Shown here: in pieces, positions 38,173 to 49,300 of the stretch | Numbering within the stretch: the stretch's first letter is position 1 | Layout: every line of letters starts with the position of its first letter | Source: Terracidiphilus sp. | GTDB taxonomy: Bacteria > Acidobacteriota > Terriglobia > Terriglobales > Acidobacteriaceae | Assembly (NCBI GenBank): GCA_049522975.1 | Contig: JBEKNI010000012.1 | Location: forward strand, 29,920 to 93,919 | Direction: 5' to 3' | DNA length: 64,000 nucleotides | Notes under the pieces: generated by a model | The model's input: the letters and a program-made list of their open reading frames with translations, nothing else | Databases searched by the model: none | What the model was told of the DNA's origin: nothing | Translations under genes and position numbers: made by a program

Positions 38173-38382
38173 TTGGCCGAATTCAAACTGCGCATTGATG
38201 AAATGCACTGCGGCTCCTGCATCGGCCGCGTCACGCAGGCGCTTGCCTCGGTCGAGGGAGTTGTAGTCAACGAAGTCCGCATAGGCGAAGCGCGGCTCAA
38301 TTCCAACCTCGATCCAGCGCCCATCGATCCAGCCATCGCCGCTCTGGCCGAGGCTGGCTTCTCGGCGCGCCTGGAAGCCTAA
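38173..38382 (+). CDS. copZ: Heavy-metal-associated chaperone (CopZ-like)
   Basis: IDEMHCGSC metal-binding motif, 69 aa, upstream of a P1B ATPase. Confidence 0.85.
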   Translation: MAEFKLRIDEMHCGSCIGRVTQALASVEGVVVNEVRIGEARLNSNLDPAPIDPAIAALAEAGFSARLEA

Positions 38383-38510
38383 GGAAGTTCTGATTAAGTC
38401 GGCTTTGTATCAGGGCACGACTTTAGTCGTGCCGCAAAGGCCGCAAAATCAACGCGGGCTTTAGCCCCTGAGGGAACGCTCAACGTGTAGTGAAGTTAAT
38501 CAGAGGTTTC
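38383..38510. mobile_element. 128-bp MITE with IS5-like ends and CTAA target duplication
   Basis: 15-bp TIR matching 12/15 (GGAAGTTCTGATTAA / TTAATCAGAGGTTTC); CTAA at 38379-38382 and 38511-38514. Confidence 0.75.
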
Positions 38511-38522
38511 CTAAGCCAACCG

Positions 38523-40781
38523 ATGCCCTCGTCTTCAACAGAATCGCTGTCTCTGCCCGTTCTTGGCATGAGTTGCGCCTCTTGCCAGCATCACGTGGAA
38601 GCGGCCCTGCGCGCGACGGCCGGAGTCGAATCCGCGCGCGTCGATCTGATGGCCCATCGCGCCAGTGTGGTCTTCGATCCGGCAATCGCCAAGCCAGTGC
38701 AACTCGTCGAAGCCATTCGCTCAGCCGGTTATGACGCCGTGCTTCCGCGCACCGATGCTTCTTCCGGCAAAGCAACCTCCGATGCGCTTGCAGCCGGAGC
38801 CGAGCGCAAGGCTTATTCCACGCTCATCGCCGGCGCAGCGGCGATGCTGCTGTCCATGCCTCTGGGGGCTGAGATGGGCACGCTCGACCACGCTCTGATG
38901 CGCGTCTTCCCTTGGTTCTACGCGCTGTCGCCGGTGCTGCTGCGCTGGTCTCTGCTGATTCTGACTGCGGGGATGATGGCCTGGGCTGGCCGCGGCATCT
39001 ACCTGAGCGCGGCGCGCGGCCTGCGCCACGGCACTACGAATATGAACACGCTGGTCAGCCTGGGAACCGGCACGGCGTTTCTTTACTCCGCTTATGCCAC
39101 CATCTGGCCCGCGGCTGGACGACAGGTCTATTTCGACGCGATCCTGCTGATTCTCGGATTTCTTCTCTTGGGCAAGAGCCTGGAAGGCCGTGCCAAACGC
39201 CGCGCCCTGGCCGCGCTCGACTCGCTCTCACGCCTGAAGCCGGCCACCGCGCGCCGCATTCGCGACGGCATCGAAACCGTCGTCCCGCTCGAAGAGATTG
39301 AGCCGGGCGAGAGTGTGCTGGTCTTGCCGGGAGAACGCTTCCCCGTGGACGCAACGATTCTCTCTGGCCGCACCACCGTGGACGAATCGATGCTCACCGG
39401 CGAGGCGACGCCGCTCGACCGCCAGCCAGGAGGGCGCGTCCTGGCCGGCTCGCTCAACTACGAAGGCGCGGTGGTTTGCCGGGCCGAGTCGCTGGGTGAG
39501 GCCACGGTGCTGGCGCAGATCACTCGCATGGTCTCGCAGGCGCAGGGCTCGCGCGCGCCCATGGAACGATTGGCCGACCGCGCCAGCGCGATCTTCGTGC
39601 CCGTCGTACTGGCGCTGGCCGCGCTCACCTTTATCGTCTGGCTCGCCGCCGCGCACTCGCTCGATATGGCCCTGGCCTCGACCGTCGCCGTACTGGTCAT
39701 CGCCTGCCCGTGCGCCATGGGCCTGGCCGTTCCCGCCGCGCTCACCGTGGCCGTGGGGCGCGGCGCGCAGATGGGCGTCCTCTTCAAGGGCGGCGAGGCG
39801 CTGGAGCGGCTGGCTCGGCTCGCCCCGTTGGACGCAATCGTACTCGACAAGACCGGAACGCTCACTGTGGGAAGGCCAGTTCTGGAGGCCGTGCATCCAC
39901 TCGGGGACTCGACTGAAGGAGATTTGTTACGCATTGCCGCCGCCGCCGAGGAGCGGTCGAACCATCCACTGGCCCACGCAATTATCGATGCAGCCCGTGC
40001 TCACGGACTCGTCTGGCAACCCGCCGATGACGTGCAGGTTCTCCCCGGCCGCGGCCTGACCGCCAAGGTCGAGGGCCACGAATGCCTGCTAGGCAATGAA
40101 TCGCTCTTCAAGGAGTTCTCGATCCCGCTGCCGGAAGGGATTGCGCCGCCGGAGTCCGGCGTGACGCGCCTGTGGATGGCTCTGGACAGCGTGCCCGCAG
40201 GCTACTTCGACGCCCGCGACGCGCTGCGCCCGGATGCCGCCCAAGCCGTGGCCGCACTGCGGAGCGCCGGTCTCCGCGTGCTGATGCTGACCGGCGACTC
40301 GGCCGCGGCAGCGGCACCTATTGCGCAACAGGCTGGCATTGCCGAAGTTGAAGCCGGACTCGACCCGGTCGCCAAGCTGGCCCGCATTCGCGCCCTGCAA
40401 CAGAGCAGCTTGCGCGTGGCCATGGTGGGCGACGGCATCAACGACGCAGCCGCCCTGGCCCAGGCTGACGCGGGCATCGCCATGGGAACCGGCGCCGATC
40501 TGGCTCAGGAGGCCGGCGATGTGCTGCTGCTGCGTGCGCGGCCTTCCGCCATTCCCGCCGCGCTCGGCCTAGCCCGCTCCACTCTCCGCGTGATGCGCCA
40601 GAACCTCGCCTGGGCCGCGGGCTACAACCTGCTCGGCATTCCCCTGGCCGCGGGCGCGCTCTATCCCAGCTTTCACATTTTGCTAAGCCCCTGGCTGGCC
40701 GCCGCCGCCATGGCGCTCAGTTCGGTCAGCGTACTGGCCAACAGCCTGCGGCTGCGAGGCTGGAAGCCGGCCAATGGATAA
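38523..40781 (+). CDS. copA: Cu(I)-type heavy-metal P1B ATPase
   Basis: MSCASC, CPC, DKTGT, TGDS, GDGIND, YN and MALSS motifs; start moved out of the MITE. Confidence 0.93.
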   Translation: MPSSSTESLSLPVLGMSCASCQHHVEAALRATAGVESARVDLMAHRASVVFDPAIAKPVQLVEAIRSAGYDAVLPRTDASSGKATSDALAAGAERKAYSTLIAGAAAMLLSMPLGAEMGTLDHALMRVFPWFYALSPVLLRWSLLILTAGMMAWAGRGIYLSAARGLRHGTTNMNTLVSLGTGTAFLYSAYATIWPAAGRQVYFDAILLILGFLLLGKSLEGRAKRRALAALDSLSRLKPATARRIRDGIETVVPLEEIEPGESVLVLPGERFPVDATILSGRTTVDESMLTGEATPLDRQPGGRVLAGSLNYEGAVVCRAESLGEATVLAQITRMVSQAQGSRAPMERLADRASAIFVPVVLALAALTFIVWLAAAHSLDMALASTVAVLVIACPCAMGLAVPAALTVAVGRGAQMGVLFKGGEALERLARLAPLDAIVLDKTGTLTVGRPVLEAVHPLGDSTEGDLLRIAAAAEERSNHPLAHAIIDAARAHGLVWQPADDVQVLPGRGLTAKVEGHECLLGNESLFKEFSIPLPEGIAPPESGVTRLWMALDSVPAGYFDARDALRPDAAQAVAALRSAGLRVLMLTGDSAAAAAPIAQQAGIAEVEAGLDPVAKLARIRALQQSSLRVAMVGDGINDAAALAQADAGIAMGTGADLAQEAGDVLLLRARPSAIPAALGLARSTLRVMRQNLAWAAGYNLLGIPLAAGALYPSFHILLSPWLAAAAMALSSVSVLANSLRLRGWKPANG

Positions 40782-42738
40782 TGGTGCAGTTTCCGAATAA
40801 ACGAGGAGCCGACCCGGGCTTCTCAAATCATGTCGATCATAAACGCCTCCCGGTTCGGATTCCGGTGTCAAACCATCCTTGGCTCCCTGCTCATGTGTTA
40901 ATAAGGTCTAACAATTGGGTTTTGCGGTGTCTAATGAATTAGGGCTTCCAAGAGAGATTTCGTATCGCAGGAGGTTTCTCCATGCACCGCTGCTTTGTAG
41001 TTGCGATCTTCTTCCTGCTTACCCTCCACGCTGGAGCGATTCCAGTGCCGCGCGGTCTGGACACCTGTCCCACGCTACAGGCCTGTCTGGGTCTGTTGGA
41101 CAAGGTTGTGCCATTGCAAGATGACGGAGAAGGCAGCAACAGCGAGGTACTCGCACGGGACCTGCAGCGCTTTGGAGAACCGGCAAAGCAGGAGCTGTTA
41201 AGACGAGCGGTCGGAACTCATGCCGGCTGGCGCAATGTCGCCGGTGCGATCCTGGCAGACTGGGACACATAGACTGCTGAGGACGTTCCGGCACTCCGCG
41301 AAGCCTTACACAAGGAACCGGGCGGCTGGGTCGCACGGCCCCTTTGGCAAATTGGCACACCGGACGCGATCCGCATTCTTGCTGAGGATCTGTCCGCAGA
41401 AGATGAAATGGGGAACCAGACGGAGTTTGCCCTTATAAAGCTTGGTGCCAAGGCCGTTCCATTTCTGATGCCACTTCTTGAAGACGACAAGAAATCAATG
41501 CTGGCGGCCCAGGTTATCTCCGAAATGAATCCTCTCCCGCTTGCTTATCTTGACCCCTGGATAGCCAAAGCACTGGATACGCGGAAGCCTGCCAGAGAGC
41601 GTTTGGCAGCGCTGCGCGGTATTGCTGCCCTGGGCCCGGCCGCAGAGAGGCCAAGCGAAGCGCTTCACGTGTTGCTTTCAGACAGTGACCCGAAAGTTCG
41701 AGAGCAAGTGTCTGAGACGCTCAAGGCCGTGCGAGATCCAATTGTGGTTGAGCGATTGGCAAAGGCCTGCCAACCCCAGGCCCCCCAGTTTGATTCTGTT
41801 GCGTTGAATTCTGCCTTGTGTCTGCGCGAGATTGCTGAATTCGGTCCGGCGGGCCGTGCGGCAGGCGAATCGCTCACGCCGTTTCTGCTCTCGGCAAATG
41901 GAGCGGAGCGAGCCTACGGCATTCTAACTCTTGGCTTCATTGACTATGCTCCAGCAACACCTCAAATCGAACAGGCGCTGGATGCGGAGGACTGGCGAGT
42001 TGTTTATGCAGCAATTCGAGCTGTCGGGTGGCTTGGAGACACAAATGCGACGACTGAACTGGACAACCTGGCATCAAGTTTCTGGCTAGCAGAACTGAAG
42101 AAAGACGCGGCTCAGGTGGCAGTGGCACTGCGCTCTTCGCGGGGAAGGGTGGAACGAGGTTCCTGGGAAGTCTTGAATCAGGGAGAGAGGCAGGATCCCG
42201 CTTGGGTGATAACCGAGGGAGTTCGTGGTCAAAGATCTTCGTGTCCGAGCAATCGATGGCAGTGGCAGAACGAAACGTTCACGATTCACTCGGGCAAGGA
42301 CGAGACAGCACACAGTTTGAGATTCCGGAATGGCAACCTCTGGGGCGAGTTGGTGGGAACCGACCACGGTGAGTGGGGCGGCACCCTCACCTGGATTCCT
42401 GCACGGGGTCAACCCGAAGTCTTGGATCGAGACAATGTCCGCGGAATGGACTATGACAACGATGGCGCAATTGTACTGTTCGGTTTGGCGCACATGGGCT
42501 TCAACTTCGGCTATGCACTCAAAGTGAGCCGGAATGCCGATGGAACTTGGACTCAGACTGAAGTTGCACGCTTGCCCGGGGAGCCAGAGTGGTGGACGAG
42601 GCTCAATTTGGATCGTGTAGCGGTACTGGCGGGGAACAAGGTGGTGGTCTTCTCTCCGAGAGAGGGAATTCTCGGGGTAGCATCTTGCGCGTCCAAATAA
42701 TCCAATGAGTGGCATCGGCTATACGGAAACTGCCCCGC
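40781..42738. mobile_element. Inverted-repeat-bounded single-gene cassette 1
   Basis: GGTGCAGTTTCCGAA at 40783-40797 and TACGGAAACTGCCCC at 42722-42736; TA at equal offset outside both ends. Confidence 0.6.
40982..42700 (+). pseudogene. Exported HEAT-repeat protein interrupted by an in-frame TAG at 41270-41272
   Basis: ORFs 40982..41272 and 41408..42700 share a frame; reading through gives DWDT*TAEDVPALREAL with no other stop. Confidence 0.85.
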
Positions 42739-42786
42739 TATTCGCCAATGCACCGAACGCCCCAGCGCGATAAACTAGCTTTAATC

Positions 42787-45141
42787 GTGCGCATCCTAAC
42801 CCGCTACATTCTCGGCGAAATCCTCTCCCACGCGCTCATCGGATGCGTGATCTTCACCTTCATCCTCTTCATGAAGGAACTGCCCCGCATTCTGGAGATG
42901 GTGGTTCACAACGCCTCCACTTTCATCAGCGTGGTCCAGGTGGTGCTCTACACTCTGCCCAACTTCTTCATGGTCACGATTCCCATGGCGGTGCTGGTGG
43001 GCGTGCTGTTGGGCTTGAGCCGCCTGGCCGCCGACAGTGAGATCATCGCCATGCGCGCCTCCGGCTTGGGCATCGGCTACTTTGTGCGCGTGGCCTCCGT
43101 GGTGGCCGTAGGCGGCACGCTGCTGGGGCTGGCCAACTCCCTTTATCTGGCTCCGCGCGCCAATCAGGGCATTCTGGAGATGGAGAAGGCCCTGGCCATG
43201 CAGGCCTCCTACGAGATCGAGCCGCGTGTCTTCGATGAGGATTTTCACAACGCCGTTCTCTATGTGCAGGATGTGCGCTCAGGAACCGGCGCGGCCAACT
43301 GGCGTCAGGTGTTCATGGCCGACACCACGGATCCCGCCAATCCGCAGATCATCACCGCCGCCTCGGCTATTGTGGCCAACGACTCCACCAATGATCCCAG
43401 CCCGCAGTTGCTCATGCGGCTGCGCGACGGATCTCGACAGGAGACGGTAGCCGGCCAGCCGCAGCAGTACAACATCTCCACTTTCAACTTCACCGATATG
43501 CCTTTGGCCGCCGGCCAGCAGAGCGAGGAACACCTCGGCCGCCTGGACACGGACATCTACGCCATGCCCATGAGCGAATTGCGGGAACGCAGCCGTTCGC
43601 CCGGCGGCAAGCGGTTCCTGATCGAGATTCACAAGCGCTTCTCCTACCCCGCGGCCTGCCTGGTGCTGATGCTGGTCGCAGTTCCCCTGGGCGTAACCTC
43701 GCGGCGCGGCGGCAAGAGCTTCGCCTGGATCTTCACCATTCTGCTGGTCTTCATCTATTACCTGCTCTCCTCGACCGGCATCGCCCTGGGCAAGCAGAAC
43801 TGGATTTCAGCATTCTTTGCAGTCTGGTCGGCCAACCTGATCTTCGCCACTGGCGGTTTCTTCCTGCTCTGGCAGATGGCCTCGGGCGGCCGCGTTCTGA
43901 GTGCGATCGCCGCCTGGACCTCGCGCTTCCAGAGGCCCAAATCCGCCGTCCCGGCTAAACCCCTCGCCGCCCCGCTCGGCAGCCTCCTAAGCAGGTTTCA
44001 ACCGCGCTCCCAGCGCGCCAAGGCCCGCAATGTCTTCCCGCGCATCCTCGATGAATACGTGGTCCGCGAGTTTCTCGGCATCTTCGTGCTGGTGCTGGCC
44101 GGCTTTGTCATGCTCATGCTGGTCTTCACCTTCTTCGAAGATATAAAGGATATCCTGCAACGCAACATTCCGCTCTCCACAGTAGGCGAGTATCTGATCA
44201 ATCTCACCCCGGATATGCTCTACCAGATCACGCCCCTGGCCGTGCTGATCGCCGTGCTGGTCACCTTCGGCGTGCTCAACCGCAACTCGGAGATCATCGC
44301 CATGAAGGCCACGGGCATCAGCCTTTACCGGCTCGTCGTGCCCATTGTCTCCATCTCCGCCGTTCTGGCCGTCGCCCTCTTCCTCTTCGACCAGTTCTAT
44401 CTGCCCCAGGCCAACCGCAGGCAGGAGGCTCTGCATAACATCATCAAAGGACGCCCGCCGCAAACCGTCCTGCACCCCGAGCAGAACTGGATCTTCGGCC
44501 AGCCCCATCACGGCGAGCCCGGCCGCATCTTCTATTACCAGTTCTTCGATCCCAAGCGCGACGAATTCGCCAATCTCTCCATCTTTGAATTCGACCCCTC
44601 CACCTTTGCGCTCTCGCGCCGCATCTTCGCCGCCCGCGCGGTCTGGGATGCCGGAACCGGCGCGTGGAGCTTCCTAAACGGCTGGCAGCGCGACATCTCA
44701 GGCGCTAACGTCACCGAGTATCGTCCTTTCCTGAAGACCTCCTTCGCGGAGATTCACGAAGACCCCGGCTACTTCAAGAAGGAAAGCCTGCAAGCCCAGG
44801 AGATGAACTTTGGCCAGTTGGACCGCTACATCAGCGACCTGCGCCAGAGCGGCTTTGACACCATGCGCCTGCGCGTCGAGCTGTGGCACAAGCTCGCCTA
44901 TCCGCTCATGGCGGTTGTTATTGCGGTGCTGGCCATTCCATTTGCGCTCTCCATGGGCCGCCGAAGTTCGCTCACCGGCATCGCCGTGGCCATCGCCGTC
45001 ACTCTCGCCTACATCGTCTTCAGCGACCTCTTCGAGGGGCTGGGCACCGTGAACTACCTGCCCGCCGCCATGGCCGCCTGGGCCTCCGATCTCCTCTTCG
45101 GGCTGGTCGGCGGCTATCTCCTGCTGAAAACGCCGACGTAA
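42787..45141 (+). CDS. lptFG: Fused LptF-LptG LPS export permease
   Basis: Two tandem YjgP/YjgQ units (RILTRYILGE..DSEIIAMRASG; RILDEYVVRE..NSEIIAMKATG); GTG start. Confidence 0.92.
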   Translation: MRILTRYILGEILSHALIGCVIFTFILFMKELPRILEMVVHNASTFISVVQVVLYTLPNFFMVTIPMAVLVGVLLGLSRLAADSEIIAMRASGLGIGYFVRVASVVAVGGTLLGLANSLYLAPRANQGILEMEKALAMQASYEIEPRVFDEDFHNAVLYVQDVRSGTGAANWRQVFMADTTDPANPQIITAASAIVANDSTNDPSPQLLMRLRDGSRQETVAGQPQQYNISTFNFTDMPLAAGQQSEEHLGRLDTDIYAMPMSELRERSRSPGGKRFLIEIHKRFSYPAACLVLMLVAVPLGVTSRRGGKSFAWIFTILLVFIYYLLSSTGIALGKQNWISAFFAVWSANLIFATGGFFLLWQMASGGRVLSAIAAWTSRFQRPKSAVPAKPLAAPLGSLLSRFQPRSQRAKARNVFPRILDEYVVREFLGIFVLVLAGFVMLMLVFTFFEDIKDILQRNIPLSTVGEYLINLTPDMLYQITPLAVLIAVLVTFGVLNRNSEIIAMKATGISLYRLVVPIVSISAVLAVALFLFDQFYLPQANRRQEALHNIIKGRPPQTVLHPEQNWIFGQPHHGEPGRIFYYQFFDPKRDEFANLSIFEFDPSTFALSRRIFAARAVWDAGTGAWSFLNGWQRDISGANVTEYRPFLKTSFAEIHEDPGYFKKESLQAQEMNFGQLDRYISDLRQSGFDTMRLRVELWHKLAYPLMAVVIAVLAIPFALSMGRRSSLTGIAVAIAVTLAYIVFSDLFEGLGTVNYLPAAMAAWASDLLFGLVGGYLLLKTPT

Positions 45142-45145
45142 CGGC

Positions 45146-45588
45146 AAGGTGCAGTTTCCGAAGCGGCGGCGATCCGCACATGATCTCCATCCAACTTGAA
45201 AGGAGTTTCCATCTAACTGCGGCTGGGCTATAATCATCTGCGATATGATCGCGATGGTTGGAAAGATTGATCGGACCGTCGGTGACACCCTAGGTGCCGC
45301 CATTTTCTACTTCTTGCTCTTTTGGCGTACCTTCAAAAGTAATCCCGGAAACAGAGTGGTGGAGTGCGGAGTCATCACGCTCACGGTATTTTTCGCAATG
45401 CTTATGTTTGTTAAACCCGGCGATATTCCGGATTGGCTGTTCTTGCTCTGGTTGATATTAGTCGTTCTGCTTTGTTTCTCAACCTTATTTTTTGTTGCGC
45501 AACGTGCTTATAACGCATTCCGACACCGTAAAGACACATGATCTGCGCCATCCTGGGCGGATGACCGGATAACCGGAAACTGTACCAG
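45146..45588. mobile_element. Inverted-repeat-bounded single-gene cassette 2
   Basis: GGTGCAGTTTCCGAA at 45148-45162 (identical to the cassette 1 left end) and ACCGGAAACTGTACC at 45572-45586; TA only at the right. Confidence 0.55.
45245..45541 (+). CDS. Hypothetical membrane protein (cassette cargo)
   Basis: 98 aa, three hydrophobic segments, low GC. Confidence 0.65.
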   Translation: MIAMVGKIDRTVGDTLGAAIFYFLLFWRTFKSNPGNRVVECGVITLTVFFAMLMFVKPGDIPDWLFLLWLILVVLLCFSTLFFVAQRAYNAFRHRKDT

Positions 45589-45641
45589 TATCTCGTAAGA
45601 CCGTCATTTGGCGAACGACTCAAAATCTGATAATCGCTTCT

Positions 45642-45876
45642 ATGACAACCAGGGCCATCACCGTCACCGGTGCCGCGCGCAACTTCGCTGATCGCGTCAA
45701 TCGCGCCTCCTACCAGTGGCATGACCTTCGTGCTGCACACGAACGGCGTGCCTGTGGCCAGGATTGTGCCTGAAGAGCAAAAACCGCGCACTGCCCGGAT
45801 CGCCATTCGCATATGCCACTCGGCTGCCGCATCCTACGGTTCGCCTTCGCCCGTTCCCGCCAGATCCGAACCGTGA
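45642..45876 (+). pseudogene. Frameshifted Phd/YefM-family antitoxin
   Basis: MTTRAITVTGAARNFADRVNRASYQ, one extra T at 45717, then GMTFVLHTNGVPVARIVP; no toxin downstream. Confidence 0.8.
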
Positions 45877-45877
45877 T

Positions 45878-46283
45878 TCACCGTAATGATGGCCGTGCCA
45901 AGCTGATCGGCAAACAACCCACAGTGCACACACAATCATTGCTCGGCGGGTAACTGGCCACCCAAGGCGAATTTGAGTTTCCCCACTTGATTGCATGGTT
46001 CGTGGCCCAATGATACAGTTCCGCACGCCCATCTACCCCGCCGGGATACCGGATTGGCGTGATGCCCACGACGCGCAGCGATGAAAACACTCGCTGATTC
46101 ATTCAGTTCGCATCCGTAATCTCCGCATCCGAGCCGACGTGCTCCTGGTCAGCAGATTCACGTCTTGGTCTCGTCCGCGGCGACGCTGACCTTGACCTGG
46201 GCAAGCCCCGAATAACCGCGCAAAAAGAGCGCCGCACCGGCAAAAAAATCATAACGGCAACTCACAGGATGAAAGTTCTTCAT
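45878..46283 (-). pseudogene. Probable relic of the N-terminus of an exported TIM-barrel glycoside hydrolase
   Basis: Signal-like 41-aa ORF 46158..46283, then a broken frame reading GITPIRYPGG..AELYHW, resembling the RYPGG..D.YHW motif of clan GH-A enzymes. Confidence 0.45.
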
Positions 46284-46331
46284 TCGCGTTTCCCGGATTC
46301 TCTCTCCAGGCGAATCGCCCGCTTTCCCGAC

Positions 46332-46371
46332 GCGGAATGGCGGACGGGAGCCTTCCCGTCCGCCATTCCGC
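46332..46371 (-). terminator. 18-bp perfect hairpin 12 nt after the stop of the NHL/Ig gene
   Basis: GCGGAATGGCGGACGGGA-gcct-TCCCGTCCGCCATTCCGC; no U-tract, so it may instead be a stabiliser. Confidence 0.55.
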
Positions 46372-46383
46372 AGCTTCAGCTTC

Positions 46384-49300
46384 TTACTTCACCGTCAAGC
46401 TGAATGTCGTCGTCTGGGTCACATTGTTCGCGCTGCTGCTGGCGCCGCCGCCGGCAGTCGGAGCCGTTGCGACGGCAGTAATTGTTACCGTCGATGAGCC
46501 GGACGGCGTCGTGAAAATGTCGCTGCCGGTCCCGCAAGCAGCCACTCCCGCCAGAGATGCGAGCAAAATGCAACCCGCCGCGCATTGCATCAACAGCCGC
46601 CGCCTAGCATTCCTGTTGCTTGCCAGACCGAAGAGGCTCAGGCCCAGCAACAGGCCGCTCCACCAGAAGATCCCGGTCGGCGTCACAATCGGGGCTTGAT
46701 TGACCAGCACCGTGAGCTTGGTCTGAAGGGGAGGAACAACCGTCGGCGAACTGCCACTCTGTTGCGCCAACACAAGCACATCCGGAATGAACTGGCAGGT
46801 TGCATGCGCGGGCAATCCGCTGCACGAGAAATCCACCGTTCCCGAGAAGGCGGATTCCGATGTCGCGGTGATCGTCATGGAGCCGGGATTTGTGGCCGAC
46901 GAATTAACGCTGGTCGCGGTCTGCGTCAAGACAAACGTGGGAATGGCAATGATCAATGGCACGGCCGCCGATGCAGATGAGGTATAATTCGCGTTTCCAC
47001 CGTAGGTGGCCACAACATTGTAATTTCCCGCCGCCAGTGCAGTCGGCCCGGTCGTAGTCAGCACCGCCGTATACGTCGTGGTCGGGTTCGTGGTCGAGCC
47101 CGAGGTCTGGCCAACTAGATACGCAGTGCCCAGCGTCGTGCCTCCGCTGGAGAAAACCACCGGCCCGGAAAGCGCCCCGGAGATTGACGGAACCACCGTG
47201 GCGGTCATCACCACCGTATCGCAGGTATTGGTGGAGTTGGGCGGTTCGGCGGAGGTCGGATCCGCCGCGCAGGCCACAAGCGATAGCGTTGTTGCCGACG
47301 TGGCCGGCACAATCTCCACGATCAGCACGTCGGAGGTCTTCGACCCGTAGTTGGTGTCGCCCTGGTACTGAACCGTAACGGAATGGCTGCCTCCGCTCAG
47401 ACCGGAAAGAACAATCGATGCCGCGCCGGTGGAGTCGAGCGTCTGCACCCCATAGTAGTTGTCATCGACGTAGAACTGTACATCTCCGGTTGGAGTGGCT
47501 CCGCTGCCGCTCTTGGGGGCAACGGTTGTCTGAACTGTGACCGAACTGCCGTAGGTGGCGTTCCCGCTGGGGGCTGTCTGCGCCAGCGTGATCGTGACCT
47601 GCGGCAGGCTCTCTCCGTATCCGGTCAGCAACAGCGAGGGAGAGGCGGTATTCTGAGCGCCGGTCGCTAAGTCGACTGTATAGCTCTCCGTCCCGACTTG
47701 CGTGGGCGTGAAAGTAGCCTCCAGCGTGCAACTGTAGCCGACTGCCAGCGTGTCGCCCGCAGTGCATCCATCGCTGGAGGCGGGCGATATCGAGAATTGC
47801 GATCCGGAAGGAAAGGCCGGATAGAGGGGCGAAGCCAGAGCCAACCCCACCTGGCCGGAACTGGAAAGGACTGCCGTATCCGAGGTGCTGGTGTTCACCT
47901 TTCCAAAGTTGACCGTCCCTGAGGTCCGGTTCAGAGCATATGCTGCCGCATTGGCGCTGTCGGTCGCATAGACGTTTCCAAAAGCATCCAGCGCAACCGC
48001 GTACGGGCTGAGGATGGATTTGGCGCTGCTGACGACGGTCTGGTCGCTTCCCGCCAGCACTCCGTTTTCATTCGGTACACGCCAGATCCGGCCAGAGCCG
48101 TCGTCGGCGATCAGCACGCTTCCCGAACCGTCTACCGCCAGGCTCGTCGGATTCTCCAGGTTGCTGCCCACATTGCTGATGACTCCATCGGCGGACTCGA
48201 CCACGTTGCCTTTGTCTGCCACGTAGACCGTGTAGTTGGCGTCAACCGCCACTGCCGTCGGGGCGTTGAGATTCGGAATCGGCAAAACCGTCGTCAATCC
48301 GCTGGTTAACAATCCGCTGGGCTTGGCAAAGGCAAGCACATCGTTGCCGCCGGCCTCGGGAATGTACAGCGTGCCGCTCAGGTCCACCGCCAACTGGCCG
48401 GGCGACTGCAGATTGTTCAGAAGGGTGCTCTGCGATGCAGTGCTCAGAACGCCCCCGTTGCTCGGGACCACCACTACGCGATCATTGCCCGTATCGGAGA
48501 TGTACAGGTTGCCTGCCGCGTCGGTCGCCACACCACCCGGCGCCTTCAGGCCGCTTCCTACCGAAGTACCTGCGCCGGAGCCTCCCGCGTATTCATAGAC
48601 GGCATTCGCGCCGGCATCGGCAACAAAAACGTTGCCCGCTGCGTCCACGGCCACCGCGTCCGGTGTCTTCAACCCGCTGCCGATTGTAGTCAGCGTTCCA
48701 GGATCGACCGTGATCGCCTGACCGGTTCCAACGCCGGACAGGGTGATAGGAACCGCATCCCCGGCCGAGTCCGTAAGGGTCAGGATCGCGCTGCGCAGTC
48801 CCGGCTCAGCCGGCGTGAATTGAACGACAACCGTGCAGAAGGTGCCGGCCGCATTGGAAGTTGCCGGGGCACCAATCACGCAGGTGCCGGCATTCGTGCC
48901 GGTCACAATGGAAAACTCCGACGAGGGCACACCCGCAACAGTGACGGAACTGGATTGAAGCGTGATCGGAGTCGAGCGGTTGAAAGTCAGAGTCAGCGTC
49001 GCCGGTGCGCTGGTGGAACCGAGGGCGGTGGCGGGAAACGACGCATTTCCCACTGTGTACTTGTAGATGGTGTTGTAGTCAACCGTCTGGAAGATATTGC
49101 CATGCAGATCCACCGCAACGCCGATATCGCTGATATTCCATGGCCCGGCATAACCGGGATAGGAGCATTGCACCGTCGTATTGTTCGGTCCAGCGCAATA
49201 GGAGACGGTGTCCAGCGGGAAGACCATGAACATATCGGCGGGATTCAGCGCGCCGTTCTCCAGAGGTATCTCGTAGATGCCTCCATTGACGGTGCCCGCG

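Follow-up and report, generated by a model that had tools for sequence, protein, structure and literature searches.

Two proposed MIC-like cargo cassettes bounded by a subterminal inverted repeat at the copA-lptFG locus of a Terracidiphilus genome

Introduction

Mobile insertion cassettes (MICs) are defined as passenger genes that lie between inverted repeats of insertion sequence (IS) type and have no transposase, with target duplications as the proof of transposition (PMC4337579). MIC231 of Bacillus cereus, the TnXax1-derived MICs of Xanthomonas and the qnrD "mic" share this build of one or more passenger genes, inverted repeats, no transposase and target duplications, the last being accepted as evidence of movement in trans (PMC4337579; PMC3913671). 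Here we describe two units of the same general plan in a stretch of 64,000 nucleotides from Terracidiphilus sp. (Acidobacteriota; the whole stretch is called the window below), one lying between the copper ATPase gene copA and a fused lptFG gene and the other immediately behind lptFG. We judge it moderately probable that they are non-autonomous, MIC-like cargo cassettes that were moved in trans by an unknown transposase. Described MICs share their repeats with identified autonomous IS or transposons in the same genomes and have conserved tips (GAGGG, for example), whereas the cassettes reported here have no known cognate element, number only two, and show varying tips, a subterminal repeat and duplications of 5 and 7 bp.

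Other described systems resemble the cassettes less closely. Miniature inverted-repeat transposable elements (MITEs) and transporter IS (tIS), both recognized as classes by ISfinder, are likewise non-autonomous or cargo-bearing, with terminal inverted repeats and target duplications, but MITEs are non-coding and usually multi-copy and tIS carry a transposase of their own, whereas the cassettes hold a gene, hold no transposase and number two. The pdif modules of Acinetobacter plasmids also lack a transposase and have at their borders short sites whose orientation alternates; those sites, however, are 28-bp XerC/XerD sites that are plasmid-borne and make no target duplication, in contrast to the 13-bp repeats, chromosomal location and duplications of the cassettes. 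As Partridge and Hall reportedly noted in 2003, the inverted repeats of the IS1111 group lie a few nucleotides inside the ends and at unequal distances on the two sides, which is also the arrangement here, but IS1111 elements have a DEDD transposase, use specific target sequences and make no 5-7-bp duplications.

Results

The window is part of contig C12 of a 4.59-Mb metagenome-assembled genome (MAG) of 99 contigs and 60.5% GC. The gene order at the locus is copA, a HEAT-repeat gene, the fused lptFG, an open reading frame (ORF) for a 98-aa membrane protein, a frameshifted Phd/YefM-like antitoxin gene and, to the right of this antitoxin remnant, a gene for an NHL/Ig protein (1348 aa, minus strand). 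A search with the lptFG protein against 60 related genomes and metagenome contigs recovered 29 related-genome loci, the locus itself (L001) and 80 same-genus metagenome loci, with lptFG homologues of 67-88% amino-acid identity, and the cassette boundaries were set by alignment to about 110 same-genus loci, without use of the repeat motif described below. In nearly all compared loci copA is directly upstream of lptFG, at a distance of 39-200 bp, and the sequence where the two genes meet is conserved: copA frequently ends in ...APAR*, with its TAA inside the sequence cgATAAACTA, and the true lptFG start, GTGCGCATCC, follows this element after 10-20 nt in relatives. Downstream of lptFG, the relatives have either an msbA-like ABC-transporter gene or, at 12 or more loci, a Phd-type toxin-antitoxin module that opens with the operator AAAATCTGATAATCTGATT about 23 nt past the lptFG stop.

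Cassette 1, which about 100 relatives lack between copA and lptFG, has a GC content of 0.55-0.57, against 0.62-0.72 in its flanks. When positions 40777-42750 are deleted in silico, the copA tail becomes ...LRLRGWKPANAPNAPAR and ends at the TAA of cgATAAACT, so that the present ...KPANG* is converted to ...KPANAPNAPAR*, with the length and the APAR* end found in many relatives; the insertion had replaced the last 7 copA codons with Gly-stop. The spacing from ANSL to the GTG of lptFG is then 76 nt, as at L106, L083, L108, L112 and L120, and the alignment is gapless. An earlier reading of this locus (the original prediction) had taken TA as the target duplication and had warned that removal of the cassette would fuse copA in frame to lptFG. 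If the cassette is excised at TA, GCCAATG remains twice in tandem (GCCAATG...GCCAATG) and copA has no stop; the real duplications are of 7 and 5 bp; at the true boundaries the stop of copA itself is restored instead of a fusion, and therefore no later change at the junction need be assumed. A proposed link to the IS630 and IS427 groups falls along with the TA, as no TA (TNA) duplication abuts the terminal repeats. The comparison of the junction in relatives, which the original prediction had recommended, thus shows a precise insertion.

Cassette 2, with a GC content of 0.475, is an insertion relative to the lptFG-antitoxin junction of at least 12 relatives. The sequence to the right of position 45598 (GACCGTCATTTGGCGAACGACTCAAAATCTGATAATC...) is the ancestral spacer that stands behind the lptFG TAA in relatives, and deletion of 45142-45598 gives a gapless junction consisting of the TAA, a 23-nt spacer as in L099, and the antitoxin operator, which aligns with L099, L124, L106 and others. 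Because the excised junctions align gaplessly to relatives, both units are precise insertions of foreign single genes with 7- and 5-bp target duplications, cassette 1 in the last copA codons and cassette 2 right after the lptFG stop codon (Table 1). The foreign origin of the cargo is indicated by the low GC content, by the absence of the HEAT gene from the 40 related genomes searched, and by homologues that occur in other contexts. In this respect the original prediction was correct, as it was in finding no transposase inside the units and the same inverted repeat around both of them.

The repeat has a 13-bp core, GG[T/G][G/A]CAGTTTCCG. It occurs at 40783(+), 42724(-), 45148(+) and 45574(-), which are the sole matches in the 4.59-Mb genome and form two convergent pairs. 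The arms of cassette 1 had been placed correctly before (TAATGGTGCAGTTTCCGAA from 40779 at the copA stop; TAGCGGGGCAGTTTCCGTA on the minus strand at 42722-42740), and the claimed second pair is real. Compared directly, the arms of cassette 1, GGTGCAGTTTCCGAATA and GGGGCAGTTTCCGTATA, match at 15/17 positions and those of cassette 2 at 12/13, in both cases above shuffled controls. Read from the outside inwards, the left and right ends are GATAAT-GGTGCAGTTTCCG and GAATAGC-GGGGCAGTTTCCG for cassette 1, and CGGCAA-GGTGCAGTTTCCG and AGATACT-GGTACAGTTTCCG for cassette 2. Both cassettes thus have their repeat in a subterminal position, at 6 nt from the left end and 7 nt from the right end, and GA(A)TA is shared by three of the four tips.

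While the four sites of the original prediction proved real, paired and unique, the statistics implied by its 10-bp core carry less weight than they seem to: that core alone is unremarkable, with 20 occurrences genome-wide at chance frequency, and 10-mers seen three times within 5 kb number 7216 cases in the real genome against 1049 in a shuffled one. It is the position at all four independently set ends that makes the motif non-random. Assuming uniform base frequencies, we estimate the chance of a common 13-mer (at most one mismatch), inverted, in four 25-nt ends at about 1e-14. The abundance of repeated 10-mers in 5-kb windows, and the fact that the genome is a 99-contig MAG, might suggest chance similarity or an assembly artefact, but this can be given almost no weight, as the locus is the same in six independent assemblies, which share its structure at 99.3% identity or more, and as four ends set independently share the motif.

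At neither the copA|lptFG junction nor the junction downstream of lptFG was the motif found in any relative, and because the relatives' empty sites are without it, the repeats came with the inserted DNA. This observation bears on the idea that the insertions entered pre-existing terminator or repetitive extragenic palindromic (REP) hairpins behind copA and lptFG and split each into two arms. Joined arms would pair at 15/17 positions in cassette 1 and 13/13 in cassette 2, and the genome does have REP-type elements and Y1 transposase genes; the reconstructed empty sites, however, align gaplessly to relatives and contain no hairpin, and neither this genome nor the roughly 460 related ones searched have the motif as a repeated element. 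REP sequences and bacterial interspersed mosaic elements have many dispersed copies, whereas the four copies seen here are all at this locus, and we consider a split hairpin very improbable.

Successive sites point in opposite directions and split the locus into modules carrying the HEAT gene, lptFG with its promoter, and the small ORF, much as pdif or sfx sites do, which raises the possibility of site-specific recombination modules (pdif, shufflon or circular cassettes), with a tyrosine recombinase reading the 13-bp arms and the direct repeats serving as crossover core. Circles would then be integrated between genes, or segments would be inverted. Such a system would agree with the absence of a transposase, with the palindrome with an 18-20-bp spacer that the arms form if the ends are joined, and with the overlap of 5-7 bp that is typical of tyrosine recombinases. 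However, the "cores" of the cassettes are alike neither in sequence nor in length, each being equal to its local target as is the case for a duplication and unlike a fixed core; the arms lie 6-7 nt away from the direct repeats and do not abut them; the relatives' empty sites have no arm-like sequence; and no such sites are found elsewhere in the genome. None of the eight genome matches to Phage_integrase, the tyrosine recombinase family, is on the cassette contig, which has no recombinase gene. A Xer/dif site would have 28 bp, with two 11-bp arms, a 6-8-bp centre and no target duplication, whereas 13-17 bp are conserved here and duplications are present. Recombination of this kind thus seems quite unlikely.

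Both junctions are hot spots for insertion, because many relatives hold other inserted genes there. At copA|lptFG and lptFG|ABC (L050-L129, L002-L036) these recurrent insertions vary in the genes they hold, which may lie on either strand, and around the relatives' other inserts at the two junctions terminal inverted repeats did not exceed those of shuffled controls. It is conceivable, then, that the cassettes are two unrelated insertions by end-joining at staggered breaks, and that the 13-mer is a regulatory or protein-binding site that travelled with them or was locally selected. The gaps of 0.6-2.5 kb with varied genes and no inverted repeats in the genus would fit this explanation, as would a duplication length that varies in the way expected from fill-in of random staggered breaks, the position of every motif copy upstream of a plus-strand gene, and the presence of the same 13-mer inside the ABC-transporter gene behind lptFG in more distant relatives. 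What it leaves unexplained is the motif at the same offset, inverted, at four ends, for which the chance estimate given above applies; outside the 13-mer the cassette ends do not resemble the ABC gene, and the motif is not a regulon box, because it is found nowhere else in the genome. We regard end-joining as rather unlikely.

In the ABC-transporter coding sequence downstream of lptFG in more distant relatives (L009, L010, L012, L019, L020, L028), the exact 13-mer GGTGCAGTTTCCG encodes (A)-V-Q-F-P about 100 nt from the start. Although this is the same locus as that of the cassettes, we treated the match as coincidence. As a source of the motif the ABC-transporter gene was dropped, since similarity ends at the 13-mer and the copy in this genome reads GGGTGCTCTTTCCC.

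Searches for further members and for a mobilizing enzyme, both called for by the original prediction, recovered no pairs beyond the two at this locus apart from one that is set aside below as chance. In the genome itself, no convergent pair of related sites surrounds a transposase. Across 60 genus and 400 family genomes the motif is neither enriched nor clustered, its matches being equal to those of a reversed-pattern control, and a slight excess in the genus comes from the conserved V-Q-F-P codon run in the ABC-transporter gene. The 19-mer GATAMTGGTRCAGTTTCCG had 13 single matches in unrelated phyla among 185,579 species genomes, where about 17 are expected by chance, and an extended motif pattern had no match in viral contigs. 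No transposase gene with the same ends was found in the genome, in about 460 relatives, in the species genomes or in the viral contigs, with the proviso that collapsed IS copies could lie in assembly gaps. The genome has five Y1_Tnp matches, of which one is at 2.2-2.5 kb of the window, and we judged this gene to be unrelated to the cassettes. In G009, the closest relative, two convergent sites separated by 9.5 kb enclose MutS2, ClpB, DLH and TauE, and were set aside as chance because these are housekeeping genes. The postulated family of non-autonomous cassettes is therefore confined to two motif-bounded insertions with duplications, plus a likely orthologue on a metagenome contig (L134). Two observations that the original prediction had named as fatal can be addressed here: the motif does not occur mostly as unpaired sites, all of its 4/4 copies in the genome being paired, and while both cargo genes do occur elsewhere without it, this is expected of captured passengers.

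The cargo of cassette 1 belongs to a HEAT-repeat gene family that is widespread in Terriglobales, with proteins of about 572 aa that, in our reading of the alignment, begin with a hydrophobic, signal-peptide-like segment. Its nearest homologue, at L037, is without the motif and is 84.7% identical in nucleotides over 40921-42719 only, a match that takes in the 60 nt ahead of the ATG and stops at the last base before the right arm. Other homologues sit behind rph or AMMECR1 genes, again without the motif. The HEAT gene is the sole gene between the arms, as had been recognized, but an in-frame TAG at 41270-41272 had been missed; it takes the place of a Trp97 codon (TGG) that is conserved in homologues, and on the evidence of this stop the gene is a pseudogene. 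Neither the TAG nor the locus is an artefact or a sequencing error, because the same stop is present in the six independent assemblies. The population occurs in peat metagenomes, from which L044-L049 derive (JGI 3300038648, 3300038619 and 3300018043; ENA ERZ27249965 and ERZ27249998; SRR13021854). At L037, the HEAT gene is frameshifted only a few codons away from the TAG position, and our guess is that this could be an error of sequencing. A 60-nt stretch ahead of the HEAT gene (40921-40981; TTTGCGGTGTCTAATGAATTAGGGCTTCC...) is 68-85% identical in homologues from unrelated contexts and may, from this conservation, be a leader or regulatory element; it has no Rfam match, and a search of 40600-46400 against Rfam matched no RNA family.

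Cassette 2 carries the 98-aa membrane-protein gene at 45245-45541, preceded by a predicted sigma70-like promoter of its own (TTTCCA-17-TATAAT, 45206-45234). The gene has 23 homologues, which sit in other contexts without the motif; in one lineage the homologue lies between pfkB and a dodecin gene, and similarity is limited to 45197-45547. On the metagenome contig L134, the lptFG 3' end is followed by a left arm that has diverged (TGTGCAGTTTCCA) and by the small ORF with the same leader, and this copy is probably an orthologue of cassette 2, in which case the insertion of cassette 2 would be old. L134 is chimeric at its other end (L134:1-1040), where AT-rich tandem repeats (23-39% GC), which to our eye look ankyrin-like, meet the acidobacterial DNA in a short inverted CCGAGAGAAAT. 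A MITE-like element in the copZ stop region of the window (38379-38514) contains the hairpin CAGGGCACGACTTTAGTCGTGCC, and a relative of this element is found within the L134 orthologue (L134:1203-1427), between the promoter and the small ORF.

Table 1. Features of the copA-lptFG locus, in window coordinates.
Feature	Position	Strand	Remarks
copA, P-type Cu ATPase	38490..40781	+	Pfam E1-E2_ATPase, HMA, Hydrolase
Left copy of 7-bp target duplication GCCAATG, cassette 1	40770..40776		
Cassette 1, 1967 bp	40777..42743	+	From the left: tip GATAAT, left arm, 125 bp of unassigned sequence, HEAT gene with its leader, right arm, tip GCTATTC
Left inverted-repeat arm, cassette 1	40783..40799	+	GGTGCAGTTTCCGAATA
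Captured segment: conserved 60-nt leader and HEAT-repeat gene (40982-42700)	40921..42719	+	84.7% nucleotide identity to L037; Pfam HEAT_2
Right inverted-repeat arm, cassette 1	42720..42736	-	GGGGCAGTTTCCGTATA; adjoins end of L037 homology
Right copy of 7-bp target duplication GCCAATG, cassette 1	42744..42750		
Native lptFG fusion gene with conserved upstream cgATAAACTA element, outside both cassettes	42768..45141	+	Pfam LptF_LptG
Left copy of 5-bp target duplication CGTAA, cassette 2	45137..45141		Includes lptFG stop codon
Cassette 2, 452 bp	45142..45593	+	Tip CGGCAA, left arm 45148-45160, sigma70-like promoter, 98-aa gene, right arm 45574-45586 (-), tip AGTATCT
Right copy of 5-bp target duplication CGTAA, cassette 2	45594..45598		
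Ancestral spacer behind lptFG, with operator AAAATCTGATAATC and Phd/YefM-like antitoxin gene with frameshift (ATG 45642)	45599..45800	+	Right flank of cassette 2

The longest ORF of lptFG starts at 42709, but relatives align from its residue 24-26 and, together with the conserved cgATAAACTA element, place the start at GTG 42787; because lptFG starts there and not at 42709, the right arm of cassette 1 is intergenic. A -10-like element stands only about 10 nt upstream of this GTG, which suggests that the lptFG transcript has a very short leader or none, and the ABC-transporter gene has a comparable TACAATAAAAC-ATG arrangement. An exact-protein look-up of lptFG for other genomic contexts returned no record. 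To the right of cassette 2, the toxin-antitoxin remnant (45618-46250) retains the palindromic operator AAAATCTGATAATC, less one base, with the antitoxin frame broken, while at least 12 relatives have intact Phd/YefM-type modules directly behind lptFG. Beyond the remnant, synteny is lost at about 46250-46384, and the genome's own msbA-like ABC-transporter gene is elsewhere (C41:34350-34634, 285 bp from the contig end), which indicates a rearrangement or large insertion at this point.

Discussion

The cassettes are read as MIC-like because each has a passenger gene (the HEAT gene or the 98-aa ORF) between shared repeats and no transposase, and because duplications flank them at sites that are uninterrupted in relatives. 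The inverted repeats are present at both ends of each unit, with arms that begin 6-7 nt inside the ends, and the flanking duplications are two copies of GCCAATG and two of CGTAA. Under this interpretation, the passenger genes, each with a promoter of its own, would have been captured earlier from other Acidobacteriaceae, and a transposase supplied in trans would have recognized the repeats, cut the target in a staggered fashion and then joined the ends; the enzyme would now be gone, or might never have been resident in this genome. The cassettes look immobile and decaying today, with a HEAT pseudogene and tips that are not conserved.

Several observations weigh against this interpretation. No cognate autonomous IS or transposon that shares the ends was found: the searches recovered neither a transposase gene with cassette ends in the genome, nor a tyrosine recombinase on the contig, nor further copies in viral contigs or in the 60 genus, 400 family or 185,579 species genomes. 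The conserved repeat is subterminal and each of the four ends has its own outermost 6-7 nt, while conserved tips are normally required by DDE transposases. The arms, at 13-17 bp, are short, and the duplications are unequal in length, one of 7 bp and one of 5 bp (if one mismatch is allowed in each, 8 and 6 bp). Only two members are found, 2.4 kb apart, an odd distribution for a transposon family, and on L134 cassette 2 is at the same site with a diverged left arm, without a recognizable right arm and with a different downstream gene. Our confidence in MIC-like cassettes is not higher because of the missing cognate element, the two members, the unconserved tips with their subterminal repeat, and the unequal duplications.

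It is also conceivable that the cassettes are the only visible trace of an undescribed transposition or integration system of Acidobacteria, in which an enzyme reads the subterminal 13-bp site and not the tips, cuts with a variable stagger of 5-7 bp, and inserts promoter-bearing single genes at the 3' ends of housekeeping genes. We offer this as speculation, with a low probability. If it were true, such a system could also explain the many single-gene insertions at both junctions across the genus.

Read as MICs, the cassettes are a known kind of element, with so far these two members only, and the practical weight of the finding is modest because there are just these two and one of the cargo genes is dead. 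The locus nevertheless provides base-pair-exact before-and-after evidence of accessory genes slipped between conserved essential genes, copA and lptFG, with no harm done, in Acidobacteria, a dominant soil and peat phylum in which mobile elements are poorly described. The partner enzyme, if found, would define a new IS or MIC family, and might explain why insertions collect at both junctions.

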